A stretch of DNA of 43,013 nucleotides from an uncultured Peptococcaceae bacterium (GTDB lineage Bacteria > Bacillota > Dehalobacteriia > UBA4068). The notes under the pieces are model-generated. The model searched no databases. It saw only the letters and a list, made by a program, of their open reading frames with translations, and was not told where the DNA came from. Position 1 is the stretch's first letter. Every line of letters begins with the position of its first letter. Position numbers and translations under genes: made by a program. The stretch spans positions 1 through 43,013 of the forward strand of contig CAYRML010000003.1 of the NCBI GenBank assembly GCA_964425485.1, in the 5' to 3' direction. This document shows positions 3,975 to 20,570 of this stretch, piece by piece.

Positions 3975-4010
3975 GGTTCCGGCTCACCTTTTGCAAGTGG
4001 ATTAGATAGC

Positions 4011-4049
4011 AAAAGAGAGGCGTTTTAAGTAAACGCCTCTCTTTTTTTT
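4011..4049. terminator. Intrinsic terminator downstream of the nitroreductase
   Basis: aaaagagaggcgttt-taagt-aaacgcctctctttt perfect stem. Confidence 0.85.
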
Positions 4050-4073
4050 CTCTCATGCGGCCGCCGGATTCTT

Positions 4074-4607
4074 TCAGCGGATAAAATCCGTTACAATATT
4101 TTCCCTAGTGAGGGGCTGTGCAACTACCTCTTGGGCGGCTTTGCCCACACCTACCATGGCCGCGGGGAAAAATCCCTCCGGCACCTGGGCCGCGGCATAA
4201 AACTCGGCATTATCAGCCAATATATAAGGTACAGCAAAAAGATAGATACTGCCCAGGCCCAGGTCCGTGGCGGCCAGCATCATATTTTCTATAATGCATG
4301 AGGCATTGCAATAGGCCAACGCTTTTGTCCGCTCGTCATCATTTTTGCCGCAGACCAGGATCAAAGTCGGCGCGCCATAAGTCGGATGCTCGCCAATCTT
4401 ATCAAAGGTGCCAAAGGCAGCTGCCTCCATCTTGTTTATAAAATCCCGATCCTGGATGACGGTCAGCTTGACATTTTCATATATCTTGCGGGCCACAGGC
4501 GCAGCATTGGCCGCCGCCAAAATCAAATCCAGCTCCTTTTCCGTTAACTGCTGCCCACTGTAAGCACGGCATGATCGCCGGGCGGCAATGGCTTCCATCG
4601 TCTCCAT
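4074..4607 (-). CDS. Nitroreductase family protein
   Basis: AIAARRSCRAY, AANAAP and ENMMLAATDLGLGS motifs; GGAGGAGG RBS. Confidence 0.9.
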   Translation of the reverse strand: METMEAIAARRSCRAYSGQQLTEKELDLILAAANAAPVARKIYENVKLTVIQDRDFINKMEAAAFGTFDKIGEHPTYGAPTLILVCGKNDDERTKALAYCNASCIIENMMLAATDLGLGSIYLFAVPYILADNAEFYAAAQVPEGFFPAAMVGVGKAAQEVVAQPLTRENIVTDFIR

Positions 4608-4722
4608 AAAGACACCTCCTCCATATTTTTGGGCAGCTAAATTATACTATATAAAAAGCCGATGCACAAGAAAATTAACATGCACTCTTGCCGGCCGGGT
4701 AAGCGGCTTGCCGAAATTTTTC

Positions 4723-4751
4723 TTGACAGTCATCATCATGCATGATAAAAT
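4723..4751 (+). promoter_or_regulatory. Near-consensus sigma-A promoter of the leader-aroF-pheA operon
   Basis: TTGACA (4723-4728), 17 nt spacer, TG-n-TAAAAT (4746-4751). Confidence 0.85.
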
Positions 4752-4807
4752 GCTATCAATCTTTAAGCAAAAACGAATATTATATATTAAGCAGAAAGGA
4801 CAGAGCA

Positions 4808-4897
4808 ATGATACTCTTGACGGCAGCAAACTTTAGCTTTAGCTTTAACTTCTTTTGGTTTTCTCCAGAAGGGGTGATTTGTGCTGCCAAAAGCTAG
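4808..4897 (+). CDS. Phe-rich attenuation leader peptide, 29 aa (MILLTAANFSFSFNFFWFSPEGVICAAKS)
   Basis: AAAGGA RBS 7 nt before the ATG; 6 Phe and 1 Trp in codons 9-18; lies between the promoter and a terminator ahead of Phe-biosynthesis genes. Confidence 0.8.
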   Translation: MILLTAANFSFSFNFFWFSPEGVICAAKS

Positions 4898-4932
4898 ATG
4901 TCCGAAACCGCTGCTAACGGATTAAGGGATCA

Positions 4933-4976
4933 AAGGGGCTGTGCAGAATCACATCTGTACAGCCCCTTATTTTTTT
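4933..4976 (+). terminator. Attenuator terminator upstream of aroF
   Basis: aaggggctgtgcaga / tctgtacagcccctt 15-bp stem with one G-U pair, 6-nt loop, then a T7 run, directly before the aroF RBS. Confidence 0.9.
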
Positions 4977-4991
4977 GGAGGGGGAAATATC

Positions 4992-5999
4992 ATGATCGTG
5001 GTACTAAAAAAAGGAACAACAAGCGAGCAAAGGCATAATCTCTGCCAATGGTTCAAGGAGATGGGGCTTGACGTCTACTTTCCGCCGGACAACGAATATC
5101 ATAATCTGATCGGGCTGATCGGCGATACCAGCAAAGTGGATATCAGCCTGGTGGAGAGCCTGTCATTTATCGAATCGGTCAAGCGTATCAGTGAGCCGTT
5201 CAAAAAGGCCAACCGCAAATTCCACGGCGAGGATTCCGTGATAGATATCGCCGGCGTTAAGATCGGCGGCGGCAATTTCCAGATCATTGCCGGCCCCTGT
5301 TCCGTTGAATCCAAAGACCAGATTCTGGCCGTGGCCACAAGCGTCAAGGACTCCGGCGCCTCCATCTTGCGGGGTGGCGCCTTTAAACCGCGCACCTCCC
5401 CTTATGATTTCCAAGGACTGCACGCCGATGGTATCGAGCTGTTGCTGGAGGCCAAAAAACAGACCGGACTACCTATCATCTCCGAAATCATAAACGCTAA
5501 TGATTTGCCTCTGTTTGAGCAGGTGGATATCGTCCAGGTGGGCGCCCGCAATATGCAGAATTTTGAATTGCTGAAGGTGCTTGGCCGCACGCAAAAAGTC
5601 ATACTGCTGAAACGCGGCCTGGCTAATACGCTCAAAGAGCTGCTGATGAGCGCCGAATATATCATGGCCGGCGGCAATGAAAATGTCATATTGTGCGAGC
5701 GCGGCATCCGCACCTTCGAAACTTATACCAGAAATACGCTGGATCTGTCGGCCGTACCGGCCCTGCACGAAATGACTCATCTGCCCGTGGTGGTTGATCC
5801 CAGCCATTCCACCGGCATATCACGCCTGGTCGAGCCTATGGCATTGGCCGCGGCGGCCGCCGGAGCGGATGGGCTGATGATCGAGGTGCACAATGATCCG
5901 CAACATGCCCTGTGCGACGGCCCGCAATCTCTGACGCCGGAACAATTCAAGCATGTGGCCGCACGCCTGCGCCGCATACGCCAGGCCCTGCTGCCCTAA
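4992..5999 (+). CDS. aroF: DAHP synthase, type I-beta, with N-terminal regulatory domain
   Basis: IAGPCSVES, RGGAFKPRTSPY, QVGARNMQN, CERGIR, DPSH and EVH motifs. Start moved to ATG 4992 after a GGAGGGG RBS. Confidence 0.95.
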   Translation: MIVVLKKGTTSEQRHNLCQWFKEMGLDVYFPPDNEYHNLIGLIGDTSKVDISLVESLSFIESVKRISEPFKKANRKFHGEDSVIDIAGVKIGGGNFQIIAGPCSVESKDQILAVATSVKDSGASILRGGAFKPRTSPYDFQGLHADGIELLLEAKKQTGLPIISEIINANDLPLFEQVDIVQVGARNMQNFELLKVLGRTQKVILLKRGLANTLKELLMSAEYIMAGGNENVILCERGIRTFETYTRNTLDLSAVPALHEMTHLPVVVDPSHSTGISRLVEPMALAAAAAGADGLMIEVHNDPQHALCDGPQSLTPEQFKHVAARLRRIRQALLP

Positions 6000-6048
6000 A
6001 ACAGGGCTTATAACAGGCTATAAACACAAAAATATAAGGAGAATTATT

Positions 6049-7191
6049 ATGGAACTGAAACAACTGCGCCAAGAAATTGATAAAATTGATGAGCAACTGA
6101 CCGAGCTGCTGACTCAAAGAATGGAAGTCTCCGCCCGCATCGCCCACTATAAGGTGGAGCATAATCTGCCTGTTTATGACCCTCAACTGGAAAGACAAAA
6201 ACGCGCGAACATGGCCGAAAAAGTGGGCGATGAGCTGGCTCCGGCCACTGATGCCCTCTTTTCTCTGCTGTTTGACCTCAGTCGCTCCTGTCAAAATCAG
6301 ATCACGGCCGGCGAAACCCCGGTCAAGGCCGATATCCGTCGTGCCCTGGCAGAAACGGATAAAATCTTCCCCACGCGGCCTATCGTGGCCTGCCAGGGCG
6401 TGGAGGGCGCCTTCTCGCAGCAGGCCTGCGAGCGCATCTTTCCCTCTGCCAGCATCATGTATTTCAACACCTTCGAAGGCGTTTTTGCCGCCATCGAGCA
6501 AGGCCTGTGCCGCTATGGCGTGCTGCCTTTGGAAAATAGCACCGCCGGCTCGGTCAACCGCATCTATGATCTGATGATGAAGCATAATTTTTTCATCGTG
6601 CGCAGCAGTCGGGTCAAGGTCGATCACTGTCTGTTGGCCAATAAAATGACAAAAATCAGCGATATCCGCGAGATCTACTCCCATGAGCAGGCCATTTCCC
6701 AATGCACGGATATGCTGAAGAAATTTGATAATGTCAGGGTCATCCCCTGCGAAAATACCGCAGCCGCGGCCAAAATGATATTCGAATCCGGCCGCACCGA
6801 CGCGGCAGCCCTCTCTTCCCGCAACTGCGCGGAAATCTATGGCTTGGACTGCCTGCTGGAATCCGTGCAGGATCAGGGTAATAATTATACCCGCTTCATC
6901 TGCATTTCCCGCGAGCTGGAGATATATCCCGGCGCCAATCGTACCAGCCTTATGCTGGTGCTGCCCAATCGGCAAGGCTCCTTATACCGGGCGCTTTCCC
7001 GCTTCAATGCGCTGGGCATCAATCTGCTGAAGCTGGAAAGCCGGCCGCTGCCCAATAGCGATTTCGAGTTCATGTTCTACTTTGATCTGGAAATGTCGGC
7101 CCAATCCGATGTCTTTTTGCGCATGTTCGACGATCTGAGCGGGCTGAGCACCAATATTAAATATCTGGGCACCTATTCCGAAGTGATCTGA
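6049..7191 (+). CDS. pheA: Bifunctional chorismate mutase / prephenate dehydratase (CM-PDT-ACT)
   Basis: LRQEIDKID chorismate mutase domain, QGVEGAFS, PLENSTAGSV, NYTRF and LESRP. Start moved to ATG 6049 after AAGGAG. Confidence 0.95.
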   Translation: MELKQLRQEIDKIDEQLTELLTQRMEVSARIAHYKVEHNLPVYDPQLERQKRANMAEKVGDELAPATDALFSLLFDLSRSCQNQITAGETPVKADIRRALAETDKIFPTRPIVACQGVEGAFSQQACERIFPSASIMYFNTFEGVFAAIEQGLCRYGVLPLENSTAGSVNRIYDLMMKHNFFIVRSSRVKVDHCLLANKMTKISDIREIYSHEQAISQCTDMLKKFDNVRVIPCENTAAAAKMIFESGRTDAAALSSRNCAEIYGLDCLLESVQDQGNNYTRFICISRELEIYPGANRTSLMLVLPNRQGSLYRALSRFNALGINLLKLESRPLPNSDFEFMFYFDLEMSAQSDVFLRMFDDLSGLSTNIKYLGTYSEVI

Positions 7192-7212: not shown

Positions 7213-8364
7213 CTAAGATTTTACGATCAGCCTTTCCGGGCGACTGCCCAGGCGGCTGAAAATCTCGTTGGCGATAGTGCCCGCCTGCTCCGCCACATCG
7301 CAAGCCGTGATTTCCTCCTCACCGGAGCGGCCGATCAGCACAGCCTCGTCTCCCTGGTGGGCCTTCGGCACGGCGCTGAGATCAACCAACAGCTGATCCA
7401 TGCAGATGCGGCCGATGATGGGCAATCTTTTCCCCGCTATCAGCACCTGGCCCACACCATTGGAGAGCGCGCGCGGAACTCCGTCCGCATAGCCGATGGA
7501 GAGCACGGCAATCTTCATATCACAAGGGGCCACAAACTGCCTGCCATAACCAGCCACTTCGCCGGCCAGCAGCTCTTTGACCAGCATAATGCGGCTCTTG
7601 AGCGAGAGCATAGGCCGCAAGCCCACCGCATGCTTTTCGGTATCCTCTTTGCTGCTCAGCATACCGCAAAGAGCAATGCCCACGCGTGCATAATCGCATT
7701 TGAGCTGCGGGCAGGTGAAAATGCCATAACTGCTCTGGATATGCTGTTTGCCGTATGTAAAGCCCGCCGCCTTGATTTGGGCCAGCGTCTCATAGAAAGT
7801 TTTGATCTGCATCTTTGTATAAGATTCATCTTCCGGCAAACCGCTATCATCGGCGCACAGATGGGTATATATGCCCTCCACCTGTAAATTAGGGCGGCTA
7901 AACACCGTCAACAGCTGCGGCAGGTTCTGCCAGCGCTCGCCCAGGCGATGCATGCCGCTGTCCAGTTTGATATGTACCTTGAGCGGCTGGCCAAAGCGGG
8001 CCATAGCCTCGGCATGCTGCGCATCGACTACGGTAGGCATCAAATCATATTGCACCAGCAGCGGAAATTGTAAGGGATGGGTATAGCCGAGGATCAATAT
8101 CTCGCCCTCTATGCCTGCCCGGCGCAGCTCTACGCCCTCGTTGGCCGCTGCCACGCAAAAAGAGCGGATGCCGATACGGTTCAGCTCACGCGAAAGCAGC
8201 ACTGCCCCATGACCATAAGCATTGGCTTTGACCGCCGGCATGATACGGCAGCCGGCAGGCACAAGCCCCTGCAAAATCCGCACATTATGGCGCAGGGCCT
8301 CTAAATCAAGTTCTATCCAAGCCCTACCCGTTCTGGGGTCGGGCTCTTGTTTTATCTTTGTCAT
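7213..8364 (-). CDS. vanT: Serine racemase, stand-alone catalytic domain of VanT
   Basis: RAWIE, AVKANAYGHG (PLP lysine), DSGMHRLG, GYADG, GRICMDQ. C-terminal GTIANE has Asn where alanine racemases have TIxYE, a VanT hallmark. Confidence 0.85.
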   Translation of the reverse strand: MTKIKQEPDPRTGRAWIELDLEALRHNVRILQGLVPAGCRIMPAVKANAYGHGAVLLSRELNRIGIRSFCVAAANEGVELRRAGIEGEILILGYTHPLQFPLLVQYDLMPTVVDAQHAEAMARFGQPLKVHIKLDSGMHRLGERWQNLPQLLTVFSRPNLQVEGIYTHLCADDSGLPEDESYTKMQIKTFYETLAQIKAAGFTYGKQHIQSSYGIFTCPQLKCDYARVGIALCGMLSSKEDTEKHAVGLRPMLSLKSRIMLVKELLAGEVAGYGRQFVAPCDMKIAVLSIGYADGVPRALSNGVGQVLIAGKRLPIIGRICMDQLLVDLSAVPKAHQGDEAVLIGRSGEEEITACDVAEQAGTIANEIFSRLGSRPERLIVKS

Positions 8365-9394
8365 TAATTTTCCTCTTAACTTGTTCGCTAATTATGACAA
8401 TCACAACAGAAAACAACACGGAGAGCAGGCAGACCGCCATATAATGCAACAGACTATTCTCTATCAGCAGTTCTGCTGTACCGCTCAGCTTGGCGAAGCC
8501 GCGCACGGCGATGATGAATAGCGGATGCAATATATAAATCCACATGGTGACGGAGGCCATCCGTTTGGAGCCTTGGCTTTTGCCATTGAGCAAAAATTGA
8601 AATAAAAAGAACATAACGGGCAAAAGCAAAATATACATGCTGTCATGCCGCTGCCAACCCAAACGATATAAGGCCAGGCCTTCCGCCAGCATTACAGCCA
8701 GACAGATCAGGAACCAGACCAGGCTTTTCGCCGCCGGTAAGCGGTGCCTGGCGCGGGCCATATAGCCGCCCATAGCCAAAAAGATCGGGGCATAGAAAAT
8801 GCCGTTCCTGGTATATGAGGAGATATGGAAACCAGCCTCGTAGGCGGATTGCAGCCCCTCGGCATTTTGCAACAGCCCATAATAGCTGTCACCGAAGAGG
8901 CCGAGCGCATAGAGCGCAGCGCAAATAATCAGCAACGGTACCATCGACAGCCGCCGCGACAAAAGATAGACCAGCAGCGCGCCGATGATGGAAGCCGGGA
9001 AATACCACAGATGATAAAAAGTGCCGTCAAATATGATATTGCGCCAGATTTCCGCCGGCAAGCTAACTCCCTCATAATAGCCGGCATAAATACTGAATGG
9101 CAGATAGATGGCTGTAGCGATGGCATAGATGATGCCGGTTTTCCGTACAAAACGCCACAGGTTGCGGTGGCTCTTTTTTTCTCCGCCAAGATAGCCATGC
9201 AACAGAAAATAGCCCGTGGTCATGAAGAAAAAAGGCACAGCCACCCGACCAATGACTCGTGTGACGGCAAAATCCAGCTCCACACTCAACGAAGAAAGCG
9301 GTGCTGTATGGATAGCAACTATCAACAGCGCCGCCAGCAAACGGAAACGGTCTATACCGCCATAACGCTGCCCTTGCAGCAGGTTGGCTTCCAT
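8324..9394 (-). CDS. vanT: VanT membrane domain (acyltransferase-3-like), encoded as a separate gene
   Basis: GIDRFRLLAALLIVAIHT, RVAVPFFFM, GTFYHLWYFPA, GDSYYG, YTRNG, RHDSMY and IYILHP; about 10 TM segments. Start moved to ATG 9394. Confidence 0.85.
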   Translation of the reverse strand: MEANLLQGQRYGGIDRFRLLAALLIVAIHTAPLSSLSVELDFAVTRVIGRVAVPFFFMTTGYFLLHGYLGGEKKSHRNLWRFVRKTGIIYAIATAIYLPFSIYAGYYEGVSLPAEIWRNIIFDGTFYHLWYFPASIIGALLVYLLSRRLSMVPLLIICAALYALGLFGDSYYGLLQNAEGLQSAYEAGFHISSYTRNGIFYAPIFLAMGGYMARARHRLPAAKSLVWFLICLAVMLAEGLALYRLGWQRHDSMYILLLPVMFFLFQFLLNGKSQGSKRMASVTMWIYILHPLFIIAVRGFAKLSGTAELLIENSLLHYMAVCLLSVLFSVVIVIISEQVKRKINDKDKTRARPQNG

Positions 9395-9423
9395 TTTATC
9401 CCTCCCAGTTTTATCCCTCCCAG
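9394..9423 (+). repeat. Perfect 15-bp tandem duplication at the vanXY/vanT junction
   Basis: ttttatccctcccag at 9394-9408 and 9409-9423. Confidence 0.9.
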
Positions 9424-10163
9424 AGAGTGATGATGAATCCGTCCATATTATTGCCGGACAGCTCATAACAGGATTCTTGGGGCAAAGTCAGAACGGTCTT
9501 TTCCCCCGCCGCCGGCACATAGCTGATCCGGGCCCGGCCTCCCTTATGCTCGAACAGCAAGGGCCGCTGCCTCTGCGGATGGGATTTTAGCAGCTCATGA
9601 TATTCTTCCAGCACCAGGCCTCTTTGCGCCATGATCTGGGCATGGGGCGCGCCTATGTAGCGGAAATGCCAGGGCTCATGACCGATGCTGGTGACGGCCT
9701 TTTTGCCCTCAGGATAGCGCTCGATAAAGCCCCATAGCACAGCCTCTTCGCGAAAAGCCTGACAGATGCCGTTATATGGAAATTCCGGACAAAGGAAATC
9801 AATATCGGGCTGATTGAGGGCTAGGTCGATGGCCAGGCCTGTCTGATGTTCGCTGCAATTGGGCAGCGCCACAAATTTTTCCGTGAACTCCCTGCCGTTT
9901 TGGGCCAGAGAATCCTCAAATATCTGGATCTGTTCCTGCTGGGAGCGCCAGCCGCTGACGGCGATGATTTGCTGCTCGGCGCCCACTTTTGCCAGAACTT
10001 GGCGTAAGACGGCCGCGCTTTTGGCCTCCATCAGCACCTGCGGATTTTTTTCGTCCACACTGACCAACTCAATATCGACTTTTTGCCGATAGGGAAATTG
10101 CGGATTGACCAGGATCAGGTCGCCTTCATATACATCTTCCAGCTTGAGGATGACATCTCTCAT
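9411..10163 (-). CDS. vanXY: D,D-dipeptidase / D,D-carboxypeptidase, VanXY (G-type)
   Basis: LILVN, SGWRS, SEHQTGLAID, HEPWHFRY and SGNNMDGF; no N-terminal TM; lies between the ligase and vanT. Confidence 0.88.
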   Translation of the reverse strand: MRDVILKLEDVYEGDLILVNPQFPYRQKVDIELVSVDEKNPQVLMEAKSAAVLRQVLAKVGAEQQIIAVSGWRSQQEQIQIFEDSLAQNGREFTEKFVALPNCSEHQTGLAIDLALNQPDIDFLCPEFPYNGICQAFREEAVLWGFIERYPEGKKAVTSIGHEPWHFRYIGAPHAQIMAQRGLVLEEYHELLKSHPQRQRPLLFEHKGGRARISYVPAAGEKTVLTLPQESCYELSGNNMDGFIITLWEG

Positions 10164-11209
10164 TTTTTCACCGCCATAGCGATAGCCGTATCGATAATCT
10201 GATCAAAACTGATACCTATGGCCTTAAACATGGTGGCATAACGGCTGTGAGCCGTGAAGCCCGGTATGGTGTTGACCTCGTTGAACACAATTTCGCCATT
10301 GGGTGTGAGGAACATATCCACGCGGGCAAAAATGCTGCAGCCCAGTGCCTTGTAGATAACTTTGGCGGCCTCCTTCAGCTCCGCGGCTTTGGCCGGGTCG
10401 ATGCGCGCCGGCACATGGATGTTGGAGGTGATGAGGTTATATTTTTCCTCGAAATCGAAGAAGCCCTCCGCCAGCTCAATTTCGTCCAGCTCGCCCACCT
10501 GCGGATCATCACAGCCCAGGACCGCGCAGCCGACTTCAAAGCCAGGGATATTCTCCTCGATGATGACCTCGTCATCATATTGGAAGGCCATATCGATGGC
10601 CGGAAGCAGCTCTTCCATATTCATGACCTTGGTCACGCCGTAAGAAGAACCGGCCTTGACCGGTTTGACGAATAGCGGATAACCATAGCTTTCGGCCGCG
10701 GCCACGGAAGTCGCCAGCTCCTGACCCTTTTTCAGTACAAAAGCTTGCGGCACGCGAATACCGGCCAGTTGGACCAGCTTATGCGCCCGATCTTTATCCA
10801 TGCACAAAGCCGAAGACAGCGTATTACAGCCCACAATGGGGATGCCAGCCAGCTCTAAAAGGCCCTGCAAAGTGCCGTCTTCACCATTTTTGCCATGCAA
10901 AATGGGCATGGCCGCATCCAGACGCTCCGTGCGCGGGCCATTAGGAGTGAATACGATCAGCCCCTGCAGGCGCCGGCTGGGTGAAATCACGGCTGGCAGG
11001 CAATCGAATTGATTATACCAGTTATCATTCACGATACTATCCAAATCGCCTGTATATTCATACCAATCCCCATATTTGGTGATGCCGATTAAAACCGGAT
11101 CATATTTGGCGGGATCCATATGGCTGATGACAGCATGAGCCGATTGCAGAGAAACCCCATATTCACTGGAACAACCGCCAAAAAAAACGGCAATTTTGAG
11201 CTTGCTCAA
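10160..11209 (-). CDS. vanG: D-Ala-D-Ser ligase, VanG-like
   Basis: GGCSSEY, LHGKNGEDG, CMDKDRAH, KPVKAGSS, FFDFEEKY and PGFTAHSRY (D-Ser ligase-type Arg); cluster context; TTG start with AGGAGGT. Confidence 0.88.
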   Translation of the reverse strand: MSKLKIAVFFGGCSSEYGVSLQSAHAVISHMDPAKYDPVLIGITKYGDWYEYTGDLDSIVNDNWYNQFDCLPAVISPSRRLQGLIVFTPNGPRTERLDAAMPILHGKNGEDGTLQGLLELAGIPIVGCNTLSSALCMDKDRAHKLVQLAGIRVPQAFVLKKGQELATSVAAAESYGYPLFVKPVKAGSSYGVTKVMNMEELLPAIDMAFQYDDEVIIEENIPGFEVGCAVLGCDDPQVGELDEIELAEGFFDFEEKYNLITSNIHVPARIDPAKAAELKEAAKVIYKALGCSIFARVDMFLTPNGEIVFNEVNTIPGFTAHSRYATMFKAIGISFDQIIDTAIAMAVKK

Positions 11210-11258
11210 ACGCTTCGACCTCCTTCTATTCTCCTATTCTTCTATCTCTCTATTCTTA

Positions 11259-12074
11259 CTAGCTGATGGGCGTACCTTCCGGCAGCTCGTATCCTATTTG
11301 GCATAAATTCTTATATAAAAGTTCCTCCGACAGCATTTTTCTGTCGGCTGTGGCCAACTGCTGCCGGTAGATGCTGTTTTCCTCGAAGATATTACCCTCC
11401 CTGCGAAAATAGCGCAGATCGCGGCCGACTATCTCATAGACATAGGGCAGATTTTCATCCGTCAGCAGGCTACCGATGATATACTGCTGGTCAAAATCAA
11501 GATGGATCTGAAAAGTCAGATCCGTATCATTTCTCACCTTCAGATCCAGCCAGCCCTCGGTGACGGTGGCATCCACGCCCTCCGGCTCCTCGCTGGGCGG
11601 CGGCGGAAAATCCTTAAGCGCATGAGTGTGCCGCTCCACCACCGATAAGGGCGAATGCAGGAAGACCCAAAACAGCAAATTGCTCATCTGGCACATGCCG
11701 CCGCCGGCCACGGTGACCAGCTGCCCGTCTTTGACGATAAGGCCTTCGCGATAGGGCTCGGTTTTATCGGCATGGCGCACAAAACGCCAAAAGGAAAAAG
11801 TCTCTCCCGGCCGGATCAAAACCTTATCCAGCGTGGCCGCGGCCAGCTTGAGGTTAAAGACCTTGTTTTCCTGATAAACCATATCAAAGCCTGTCTCATA
11901 ATTATATAGCAAACTTTTTGCCTCAAACAGCTTATAAGGTAAAAGCTCTTGGCCCTGGGTGCTGCTGTAGCGGTTGCCATCTTTGTCCATCTCGGCATAA
12001 AACCATATCAGCCGCTGTTTTTTCCGCAAAGGCAAAAGCCAAGGAAAAATTTGAGTTAATCTCTTTCTGGCCAT
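11259..12074 (-). CDS. vanW: Glycopeptide resistance accessory protein VanW
   Basis: RKRLTQIFPWLLPLR, NKVFNLKLAA, PGETFSFW, GGGMCQMSN, ERHTH and DATV...WLDL. Confidence 0.9.
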   Translation of the reverse strand: MARKRLTQIFPWLLPLRKKQRLIWFYAEMDKDGNRYSSTQGQELLPYKLFEAKSLLYNYETGFDMVYQENKVFNLKLAAATLDKVLIRPGETFSFWRFVRHADKTEPYREGLIVKDGQLVTVAGGGMCQMSNLLFWVFLHSPLSVVERHTHALKDFPPPPSEEPEGVDATVTEGWLDLKVRNDTDLTFQIHLDFDQQYIIGSLLTDENLPYVYEIVGRDLRYFRREGNIFEENSIYRQQLATADRKMLSEELLYKNLCQIGYELPEGTPIS

Positions 12075-19982: not shown

Positions 19983-20570
19983 TCAAAAAATCTTTTTATC
20001 CAGCTTGGCTAACAGCCGGGCCAGAAGAAAAGTGGAGAGCCCCACCACCGTGCCATGATCGCCTTCTATCTTCTCGATAAAAACGCTGCCCAGGCCCTGT
20101 ATGCCATAGGCGCCGGCTTTATCCATTGGCTCTTTGGTCGCGATATAAGCAGCTATATCCGCTTTGGACAAAGGCCGGAAAAAGACTTTGGTTACGCTGC
20201 AATCGCTGATCCGGCAGCTTGTGCCCCCATCAATCAGCGCGATAGAGCTGTAGACCTCATGCGACGAGCCCGATAAAAAGGACAGCATGGCCGCGGCATC
20301 AGCCTCGTCCTGCGGCTTGCCCAAGACCCTGCCGTCTTTGACCACGATGGTGTCGGCAGCAATGATCAGCTTGTCCCGCACTGTTTTGGCCGCCTCCTTG
20401 GCCTTGGCCTCGGCATTGGCAATGACTATATCGCATGGCCGGCCCTTGCTGATCTCCTCCACATCCGTTGCGATGACCTGAGGATATAGGCCCAAAGACT
20501 GCAATATGTCAAGCCGTCTTGGCGAAGCACTGGCCAAAACTACCTGCTCAGAAACGATTTTCGTAGTCAT
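19983..20570 (-). CDS. maf: Maf-family nucleoside triphosphate pyrophosphatase
   Basis: LASASPRR, ADTIV, GKP and DKAGAYGIQG. Start moved to ATG 20570 after CAGGAGG. Confidence 0.93.
   Translation of the reverse strand: MTTKIVSEQVVLASASPRRLDILQSLGLYPQVIATDVEEISKGRPCDIVIANAEAKAKEAAKTVRDKLIIAADTIVVKDGRVLGKPQDEADAAAMLSFLSGSSHEVYSSIALIDGGTSCRISDCSVTKVFFRPLSKADIAAYIATKEPMDKAGAYGIQGLGSVFIEKIEGDHGTVVGLSTFLLARLLAKLDKKIF

Follow-up and report, generated by a model that had tools for sequence, protein, structure and literature searches.

A Phe-rich leader before aroF-pheA in an uncultured Peptococcaceae bacterium: a probable attenuator from a widespread family of Tyr/Phe leaders

The aroF-pheA operon of an uncultured Peptococcaceae bacterium is preceded by a leader that probably acts as a transcription attenuator of the classical, ribosome-mediated type, with Phe as the amino acid sensed. 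The leader lies in a stretch of 43,013 nucleotides (contig CAYRML010000003.1 of GenBank assembly GCA_964425485.1), here called the window, and, judged by its sequence, it is no one-off, but one derived, Phe-only member of a widespread family of Tyr/Phe leaders. The sequence elements of such an attenuator can be read directly in the window; they are conserved before aroF in many related Clostridia, bacteria of the gut type; the strands expected to pair are complementary specifically to their own partners; and the make-up of the sensor codons tracks the content of the operon. An earlier reading of the window on its own (below, the original prediction) had proposed a logic like that of pheL and trpL, and this is supported by the conserved ORF, start codon, aromatic run and terminator, and by two alternative helices, found before aroF.

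All the leader elements are on the + strand. The promoter, located by consensus scan just where the original prediction had placed a near-consensus one, combines a -35 hexamer (4723-4728) and, across a 17-nt spacer, an extended -10 element (4743-4751: TG, one base and the hexamer 4746-4751). It matches the consensus at 11 of 12 positions and is top-ranked among four promoter-like sites in 4000-6000 (shuffled sequences gave 2.5 +/- 1.8), and transcription would start near 4758-4760. A purine-rich Shine-Dalgarno sequence (SD; 4795-4800, agreeing with the core at four of six positions, and with an equivalent site in relatives too) stands 7 nt before the ATG (4808) of the leader ORF (4808-4897), which has 29 codons and the stop codon TAG (4895-4897), and reads as had been predicted. 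Codons 9-18 (4832-4861) are the regulatory run, in which six of ten are Phe (five TTT and one TTC), one is Trp and none is Tyr; the Phe codons of the leader peptide alternate with Ser/Asn codons. The predicted strong terminator just before aroF is an intrinsic terminator hairpin (4933-4968, with a 15-bp stem including eight G-C pairs) followed by a run of seven T (4970-4976); the start of aroF, previously given as 4993, is corrected to 4992. No separate aroF promoter was seen by consensus scan in 4897-4992.

Four segments of this RNA could take part in alternative pairings. Segment 1 (4822-4828) is the 5' strand of an outer helix, and segment 2 (4874-4888) the 5' strand of a putative antiterminator, its last 7 nt doubling as the 3' strand of the outer helix; segment 3 (4933-4953) comprises the 5' arm and loop of the terminator, and segment 4 is the 3' arm. 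Enclosed by the outer helix is an inner hairpin (4848-4875), in which Phe/Trp codons are paired with sequence 3' of them. Segment 2 lies 9-23 nt upstream of the last base of the stop codon.

Downstream, aroF (4992-5999, + strand) encodes a DAHP synthase with an N-terminal ferredoxin-like domain (Pfam PF00793 and PF18152; NCBIfam NF006421, 469 bits), and pheA (6049-7191, + strand), after a gap of 49 nt, a chorismate mutase/prephenate dehydratase (Pfam PF01817 and PF00800), which was the sole prephenate dehydratase detected in the assembly by genome-wide tblastn. The operon consists of these two genes alone, and a vanG-type cluster past pheA is convergent with it. Upstream of the leader, a nitroreductase-family gene (4074-4607) is on the opposite strand, so the hairpin is not the terminator of that gene. 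As to public RNA data for this region, a 158-nt contig from an RNA library covers 4792-4935 exactly, and neither shows transcript ends or levels nor proves that the leader is transcribed; two runs have small shares (0.10 and 0.09) and are stored as contigs, none of them over aroF.

How is the rest of the aromatic pathway of this organism arranged? The same genome has a second aroF operon, aroF-aroB-aroA, behind a Tyr/Phe leader, while aroC, a chorismate-mutase-only gene and aroK are found on another contig. The T-box model gives eight matches in the genome, including those before tyrA (specifier read as UAC, for Tyr) and before a gene for a PaaK-like (phenylacetate-CoA-ligase-like) protein (specifier read as UUC), so T-box and leader-peptide systems coexist there. 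With the pathway split up in this way, a sensor on aroF-pheA that reads Phe alone makes sense. A genome-wide de novo scan for further leaders with amino-acid runs (SD matching at five or more of six positions, plus a terminator) gave 12 candidates, none of them convincing; it missed the window's own leader because the SD there matches at four of six. One scan candidate within the window, near 20056 on the minus strand, was rejected as lying inside a coding gene in another frame.

The leader itself matches no RNA family of Rfam 15. In a search of 4400-5200 against all 4227 families, the + strand of the leader had no match at E <= 10, T-box included, and no family reached its gathering score in the whole window. 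Four chance-level matches (E 0.56-6.2) were to snoRNA, miRNA and lncRNA models, three of them overlapping the element but on the opposite strand, and the single + strand match lying inside aroF. For the T-box model (RF00230) in particular there was no match at E <= 10 in 4400-5200 and none at the gathering score in the window, in agreement with the original prediction, which had seen no T-box motif in the leader and proposed an Rfam search as a check. Its contrast with the T-boxes said to be typical of such genes in Bacillota holds for this leader, but not for the genome at large, with its eight matches. The amino-acid leader families of Rfam 15, which we take to be those for Phe, Trp, His, Leu, Thr and leu/phe leaders (for example, Phe_leader and Trp_leader), likewise gave no match to the window leader.

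Folding of the whole leader gave a minimum free energy (MFE) of -69.1 kcal/mol, compared with -51.3 +/- 4.5 kcal/mol for shuffled sequences (z = -4.0, better than 200 of 200), in a structure made up of the outer helix (4822-4828 with 4882-4888), the inner hairpin (4848-4858 with 4865-4875) and the terminator. Three pairings had been read from the sequence in the original prediction. The first is the outer helix, which is complementary and is present in the MFE fold; the second, 4852-4858 with 4887-4893, shows complementarity on inspection, although in the fold 4848-4858 is paired with 4865-4875. The third, the putative antiterminator, forms when the 3' arm of the terminator is omitted, 4874-4888 then pairing with 4937-4952, and the best antiterminator duplex (4874-4888 with 4936-4953) has an energy of -17.7 kcal/mol. 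The shortened window RNA that forms the antiterminator folds at -23.0 kcal/mol, which is ordinary for its composition (z = +0.13; 107 of 200 shuffles were as good).

With a ribosome mask imposed, equilibrium folding showed no switch: the terminator won at any ribosome position in 13 of 17 leaders, including that of the window. With the terminator favoured at equilibrium, the switch, if real, must be kinetic, as in the classical cases. When transcripts were shortened to the RNA ahead of the ribosome and behind the polymerase, the 5' arm of the window's terminator was paired upstream with a probability of about 0.6 for a ribosome at codons 4-20, and of 0.2-0.4 for one at codons 23-30; most relatives behaved like the window. 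In the modelled state with no ribosome, segment 2 was not clearly sequestered, and the state was not clearly distinct.

From these elements we infer leader translation, ribosome stalling, and actual termination and readthrough, in a scheme by which the availability of charged tRNA-Phe would govern aroF-pheA expression. Transcription would begin at about 4759, and a ribosome loading at 4808 would translate the leader as RNA polymerase neared the terminator. If Phe-tRNA were scarce, the ribosome would stall within 4832-4861, covering segment 1 together with the inner hairpin's 5' half (for a stall at the last Phe codons, segment 1 would be just behind the ribosome footprint, not beneath it). Segment 2 would then be free to pair with 4937-4952 as this emerged, so blocking the terminator and allowing aroF-pheA to be transcribed. 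If Phe were plentiful, the ribosome would reach the stop codon and cover segment 2, the terminator would form, and transcription would end near 4976. Without translation, segment 1 would be expected to pair with segment 2, and again the terminator would form.

Is such a leader found elsewhere? A blastn search with 4700-5100 against 41 relatives returned the window itself as its sole match; the leaders are too diverged for blastn, and the search was therefore anchored on the AroF protein. AroF (E <= 1e-30) is present in 22 of the 31 genomes of the window's family, at 27 loci. At 16 of these, an ORF of 21-40 codons with an ATG and an SD, and with at least five aromatic codons in ten, lies 180-250 nt before aroF; two further loci have weak versions of the ORF, and at the nine loci without it, aroF either lies within an operon or is matched only in part. 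A terminator follows the ORF at all 17 family loci examined, and the operon of these relatives takes the form aroF-(tyrA)-aroB-aroA-aroC-pheA-aroE/aroK. A wider sample of Clostridia, both MAGs and isolates, with one genome per species (labelled Oscillospiraceae, Acutalibacteraceae, Ruminococcaceae, Lachnospiraceae, Christensenellaceae, Anaerovoracaceae and others), provided 80 AroF loci, 66 of which have the same kind of ORF, most with a terminator; Angelakisella massiliensis, Hominicoprocola fusiformis and a Pseudoflavonifractor sp. are among the carriers.

Altogether, a short, ATG-started, Tyr/Phe-rich ORF, usually followed by a terminator, occurs at 82 of 107 related aroF loci, and the homologous upstream ORFs that the original prediction had recommended looking for in relatives are therefore to hand. 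When an ATG and an SD matching at four or more of six positions were required, 72 of 106 forward sequences qualified, as against one of 106 reverse complements and none of 106 mononucleotide shuffles; after an incomplete neighbour-preserving shuffle, which retains part of the signal, 12 of 106 did so.

Among these leaders the sensor codons follow operon content, being mixed with tyrA in the operon, Phe-rich without it, and Phe-only at the window. Across the 82 leaders, the mean of F/(F+Y) is 0.48 where tyrA comes after aroF (n = 56) and 0.75 where aroB does (n = 14), with a Mann-Whitney p of 1.7e-7 that is inflated by kinship; five loci with aroF alone have a mean of 0.35 and include the three lowest values (0.17-0.25). 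The leader of the window is one of two Tyr-free examples among the 82, and so departs from the mixture of Tyr and Phe that characterizes the family. The clade to which its AroF belongs (SH-aLRT 96) contains four aroF-tyrA loci, the leaders of which have 3-5 Tyr codons each, and this suggests that a loss of the genes from tyrA to aroC between aroF and pheA was accompanied by a loss of Tyr codons. At least nine changes are needed to account for the tyrA-less state on a quick tree of AroF; three independent pairs, too few to reach significance, could be drawn on supported branches, with an average of 2.7 of 3 in the expected direction (sign-test p = 0.25).

These comparisons bear on whether it is Phe that is sensed. 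A translated leader with a terminator might instead respond to translation or coupling in general, or act as a constitutive damper, and this would be in keeping with the weak thermodynamic switch, with the one Trp codon in the run and with the leaders of two other aroF-pheA operons (L063 and L110), which are mixed, having kept their Tyr codons. We nevertheless regard it as unlikely, since six of ten consecutive codons here are Phe, codon composition tracks operon content over 82 leaders, the window's AroF shares a clade with four aroF-tyrA loci that have Tyr codons in every leader, and Tyr is handled separately, by a T-box, in the same genome.

The RNA of the family is also conserved. An alignment of 50 leaders has a core that consists of the start codon, the 5' strand of the outer helix, a tandem 6-nt unit reading Tyr-Phe and the complement of that unit, followed on the 3' side by segment 2 and then, past a linker that varies, by a terminator whose 5' arm and loop are conserved. 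RNAalifold, applied to MAFFT alignments, found no structure in one and the terminator alone in the other; the helices were therefore written by hand and their pairs counted. For the terminator, 94% of cells are paired, and seven of the nine main-helix pairs show changes on both sides. The outer helix (alignment A2) is paired in 65.8% of cells, compared with 60.7% in shuffled alignments (0 of 500 as high), with a covariation score of 0.258 against 0.178 (again 0 of 500), and registers slid from the proposed one are 31-56% paired. For the antiterminator in fixed alignment columns, 66.3% of cells are paired and 66.7% in shuffled alignments (346 of 500), with no covariation beyond column composition. 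In the inner hairpin of relatives, the aromatic codons are paired in either of two registers, because a 6-nt repeat makes up the 5' strand. Of the 50 sequences, about half have nine or more of the 11 pairs of register A, and 16 have eight or more of the nine pairs of register B. No single consensus fits this hairpin, and for that reason we claim no covariation for it.

Pairing energies tell more about partner specificity. In 67 leaders, antiterminator strands pair with their cognate partners at a mean of -14.2 kcal/mol and with non-cognate ones at -11.0 kcal/mol (0 of 5000 permutations as extreme), and the aromatic half of the ORF hairpin pairs with its own downstream half at -23.5, against -16.7 kcal/mol (0 of 5000), these sets including kin, which works against the test. 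The cognate duplex test was also done on 17 sequences. The 5' strand of the antiterminator overlaps the region from -15 to +12 around the stop codon in 53 of the 67 leaders. Overall, the antiterminator draws modest support from thermodynamics and from column-wise covariation. With respect to reading frame, the distances from ATG to core take six lengths, which are multiples of 3 apart in 47 of 50 sequences (a test that is partly circular, the ATG having been chosen in frame), and distances after the aromatic run are unconstrained (26/14/10).

The aromatic codons double as a strand of a conserved hairpin, and RNA structure could account for some of their conservation. This leaves some room for a switch that is not translated and acts as RNA, by binding a protein, small ligand or tRNA, with the ORF as a by-product of a U-rich/A-rich stem; the repeated 6-nt unit may also recall, in a general way, the systems of repeat-binding attenuation proteins. 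We think this more doubtful still than a general sensor of translation, given that an ATG and an SD accompany a single Tyr/Phe-reading frame far more often than in the reverse-complement and shuffled controls, that the ATG-to-core lengths differ by multiples of 3 (with the circularity just mentioned), that swaps from Tyr to Phe track tyrA content, and that no riboswitch or T-box model matches.

Covariance models built from the leaders, and used as probes, lead back to aroF. Model R1 was made from 50 leader sequences, that of the window included, and R2 from 49, with the window excluded. The sole match of R2 in the window is at 4796-4970 (47.1 bits, E = 6.6e-8), ending 22 nt before aroF, and the same interval is again its sole match genome-wide (E = 2.3e-6). 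R1 finds matches in 31 of 73 genomes from a sample of the class, seed sequences accounting for many of them, and in five of 151 sampled evenly across the phylum, two of which are seeds. Of its matches at 40 bits or more, 24 of 27 end 19-77 nt before aroF. Of the three exceptions, one lies at the end of a contig; another, the closest relative of the window leader, is Phe-only and precedes a PaaK-like gene; and the third, which bears Trp, precedes a PALP enzyme. Leaders with Val runs before acetolactate synthase scored 36 bits, mostly over the terminator and the segment-2 region, and no homology is claimed for them.

This linkage, together with the lack of a separate aroF promoter in 4897-4992, makes it very improbable that the product of the ORF is a small hydrophobic peptide with a function of its own, and the hairpin the terminator of its gene: the start context is good and a terminator does follow, but the peptide is free to vary, both in length (about 14-42 residues) and in its sequence beyond the aromatic run, and the stop codon shifts relative to the conserved RNA segments.

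Returning to the attenuator tuned to Phe, we draw attention to a broader evolutionary reading, which we advance tentatively, as a single whole and with slightly less than even confidence. The window element would be one state of an evolvable attenuator scaffold, widespread in Clostridia, with sensor codons that are rewritten as the controlled genes change. On this reading they would be Tyr plus Phe before aroF-tyrA-aroB-aroA-aroC-pheA, Phe-rich where tyrA has left the operon, and Phe-only at the window, whose operon looks like the product of an internal deletion to aroF-pheA. They would also be Phe-only before the PaaK-like gene, Trp-bearing before the PALP enzyme and perhaps Val before ilvB, and the scaffold and T-boxes would have been swapped for each other at the same gene in sister genomes.

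For the synthesis of aromatic amino acids in Clostridia like the Oscillospiraceae, Lachnospiraceae and Christensenellaceae, control by T-boxes or proteins is the usual assumption. Our results point to classical attenuators, in a family that is large and unannotated, before the first gene of the shikimate pathway. Annotation would gain in hundreds of genomes, in which the leader ORFs are uncalled or called hypothetical, and a covariance model would be ready for use. The leaders also provide a natural series of sensor-codon make-up against operon content, of use in understanding how attenuator specificity is tuned and in devising amino-acid-responsive switches for anaerobes. The mechanism is a textbook one, so that the family is of value for its distribution, its evolution and its annotation, and introduces no new principle.

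To what extent has such a leader been described before? Panina et al. reportedly dealt, in 2003, with aromatic regulation in low-GC Gram-positives, which might bear on novelty. Our survey of the literature, as far as it reached, found no aroF leader from Clostridia, the only aroF precedents being from Corynebacterium and Acholeplasma. The suggestion that the element was unannotated and possibly undescribed therefore stands for Clostridia aroF, in Rfam 15 as in that literature, but needs qualifying in that aroF leaders have been published from elsewhere. In Corynebacterium glutamicum, a putative leader peptide with the codons Phe-Tyr-Phe precedes aroF, for DAHP synthase (PMC4046766); going by its description, it belongs to Actinobacteria and has three regulatory codons, as against 5-9 in ten here. 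The element uORFC-13-1, as described, is an upstream ORF with a promoter, an RBS, a start codon, a Phe-coding U-run and an adjoining intrinsic terminator; its 24 representatives, from Acholeplasma and unassigned environmental DNA, are before aroF only (PMC8632094). Like the window leader, it belongs to Bacillota in the broad sense, and on the basis of that description the two may be members of the same family.

Known leader-peptide attenuators in other Firmicutes include the leu/phe leader of Lactococcus. For His, such attenuators have been described from bacilli, Peptostreptococcaceae and Erysipelotrichales (PMC2965389, PMC9413887). All of these resemble the window leader in using classical attenuation in place of T-boxes, but differ in amino acid, operon and sequence, and none concerns aroF of Clostridia.

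The closest functional parallels are the enterobacterial leaders pheL-pheA and trpL, with which the window leader would share an ORF with Phe codons, alternative pairings of the 1:2, 2:3 and 3:4 kinds, a terminator before a Phe-biosynthesis operon, and a stop codon so placed that a terminating ribosome would cover segment 2. The window leader differs from them in its control of DAHP synthase together with pheA, in its occurrence in Clostridia, in having Phe codons that alternate with Ser/Asn and form a strand of a hairpin, and in matching no Rfam family. The T-box, finally, is like the proposed attenuator in sensing tRNA charging and in controlling a terminator before amino-acid genes, but it does so by direct binding of tRNA, without translation.

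The genome to which the window belongs (G000) also contains T-boxes, tRNA-sensing leader RNAs. One lies directly 5' of tyrA (95.2 bits) and another directly 5' of a gene for a phenylacetate-CoA-ligase-like (PaaK-like), AMP-binding protein, this second one scoring 91.5 bits, slightly below the cut-off of 93; the two elements are at G000:C31:13435-13683 and G000:C28:8693-8948. With the specifier position placed according to the usual T-box layout, the specifier is presumably UAC for tyrA and UUC for the PaaK-like gene.

PaaK-like genes are also found behind leaders of the type recognized by R1, the 50-sequence covariance model of the aroF Tyr/Phe leader family that includes the window, at three loci: L148 (G010:C31:66538-66704), L189 (G008:C143:392-557) and L183 (in G041). 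The leader at L148 is Phe-only. In the L189 leader Tyr and Phe codons are mixed, and 3' of it come first a sodium/solute symporter gene and then the ligase gene. In other genomes of the family, the PaaK-like gene is instead preceded by a T-box (3 of 20 loci above the cut-off). This looks like the exchange of a T-box and a leader peptide at one and the same gene across family genomes, possibly connected with the synthesis of aromatic amino acids from aryl acids.

A second aroF in G000, 53% identical to that of the window, is the first gene of aroF-aroB-aroA (L025 on contig C106). It has its own, diverged leader with both Tyr and Phe codons, which was not detected at E 0.01 by R2, the model of 49 sequences from which the window was left out. 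Genes for aroC, a chorismate-mutase-only protein and aroK lie on another small contig (L188 on C109). In five other loci (L056, L080, L119, L121 and L127), aroF stands as a single gene with unrelated genes 3' of it. Tyr codons dominate in four of these leaders (5-6 Tyr vs 0-2 Phe), and the leader of L119 is balanced, with three of each. The codon content of these single-gene leaders suggests that some Clostridia have a DAHP synthase isozyme tuned to Tyr.

In the window, positions 4792-4935 are matched without a mismatch by a single contig of 158 nt, which comes from a library of the metatranscriptome type, the rest of 4650-5650 having no coverage in the same run; the match coincides with the leader, but such a contig can show neither transcription nor transcript ends. 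On the other side of the operon, pheA is met convergently by a vanG-type (D-Ala-D-Ser) glycopeptide-resistance-like cluster (7213-12074, minus strand), comprising VanW (11259-12074), a VanG ligase at 10160-11209 (544.8 bits against a cut-off of 495), a protein resembling VanXY-G (9411-10163) and a VanT that is split into a membrane part at 8324-9466 and a catalytic part at 7213-8364 (533.8 bits against a cut-off of 460).

Leaders also precede genes of other kinds. One R1 match (L149, G016:C36:6353-6532; 43 bits), with two Trp codons as well as Phe and Tyr, lies directly 5' of a gene whose product, an enzyme of the PALP family with 472 aa, may be TrpB-like. At L154 (G005:C35) and L156 (G045:C65), the gene for the acetolactate synthase large subunit is preceded by a short ORF that includes a long stretch of Val codons, with a terminator between the two. 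Because these two leaders match R1 only weakly (36 bits), their homology to the aroF leaders is doubtful, and we read them as alike in design: each looks like a branched-chain leader-peptide attenuator built much as the aroF leaders are.
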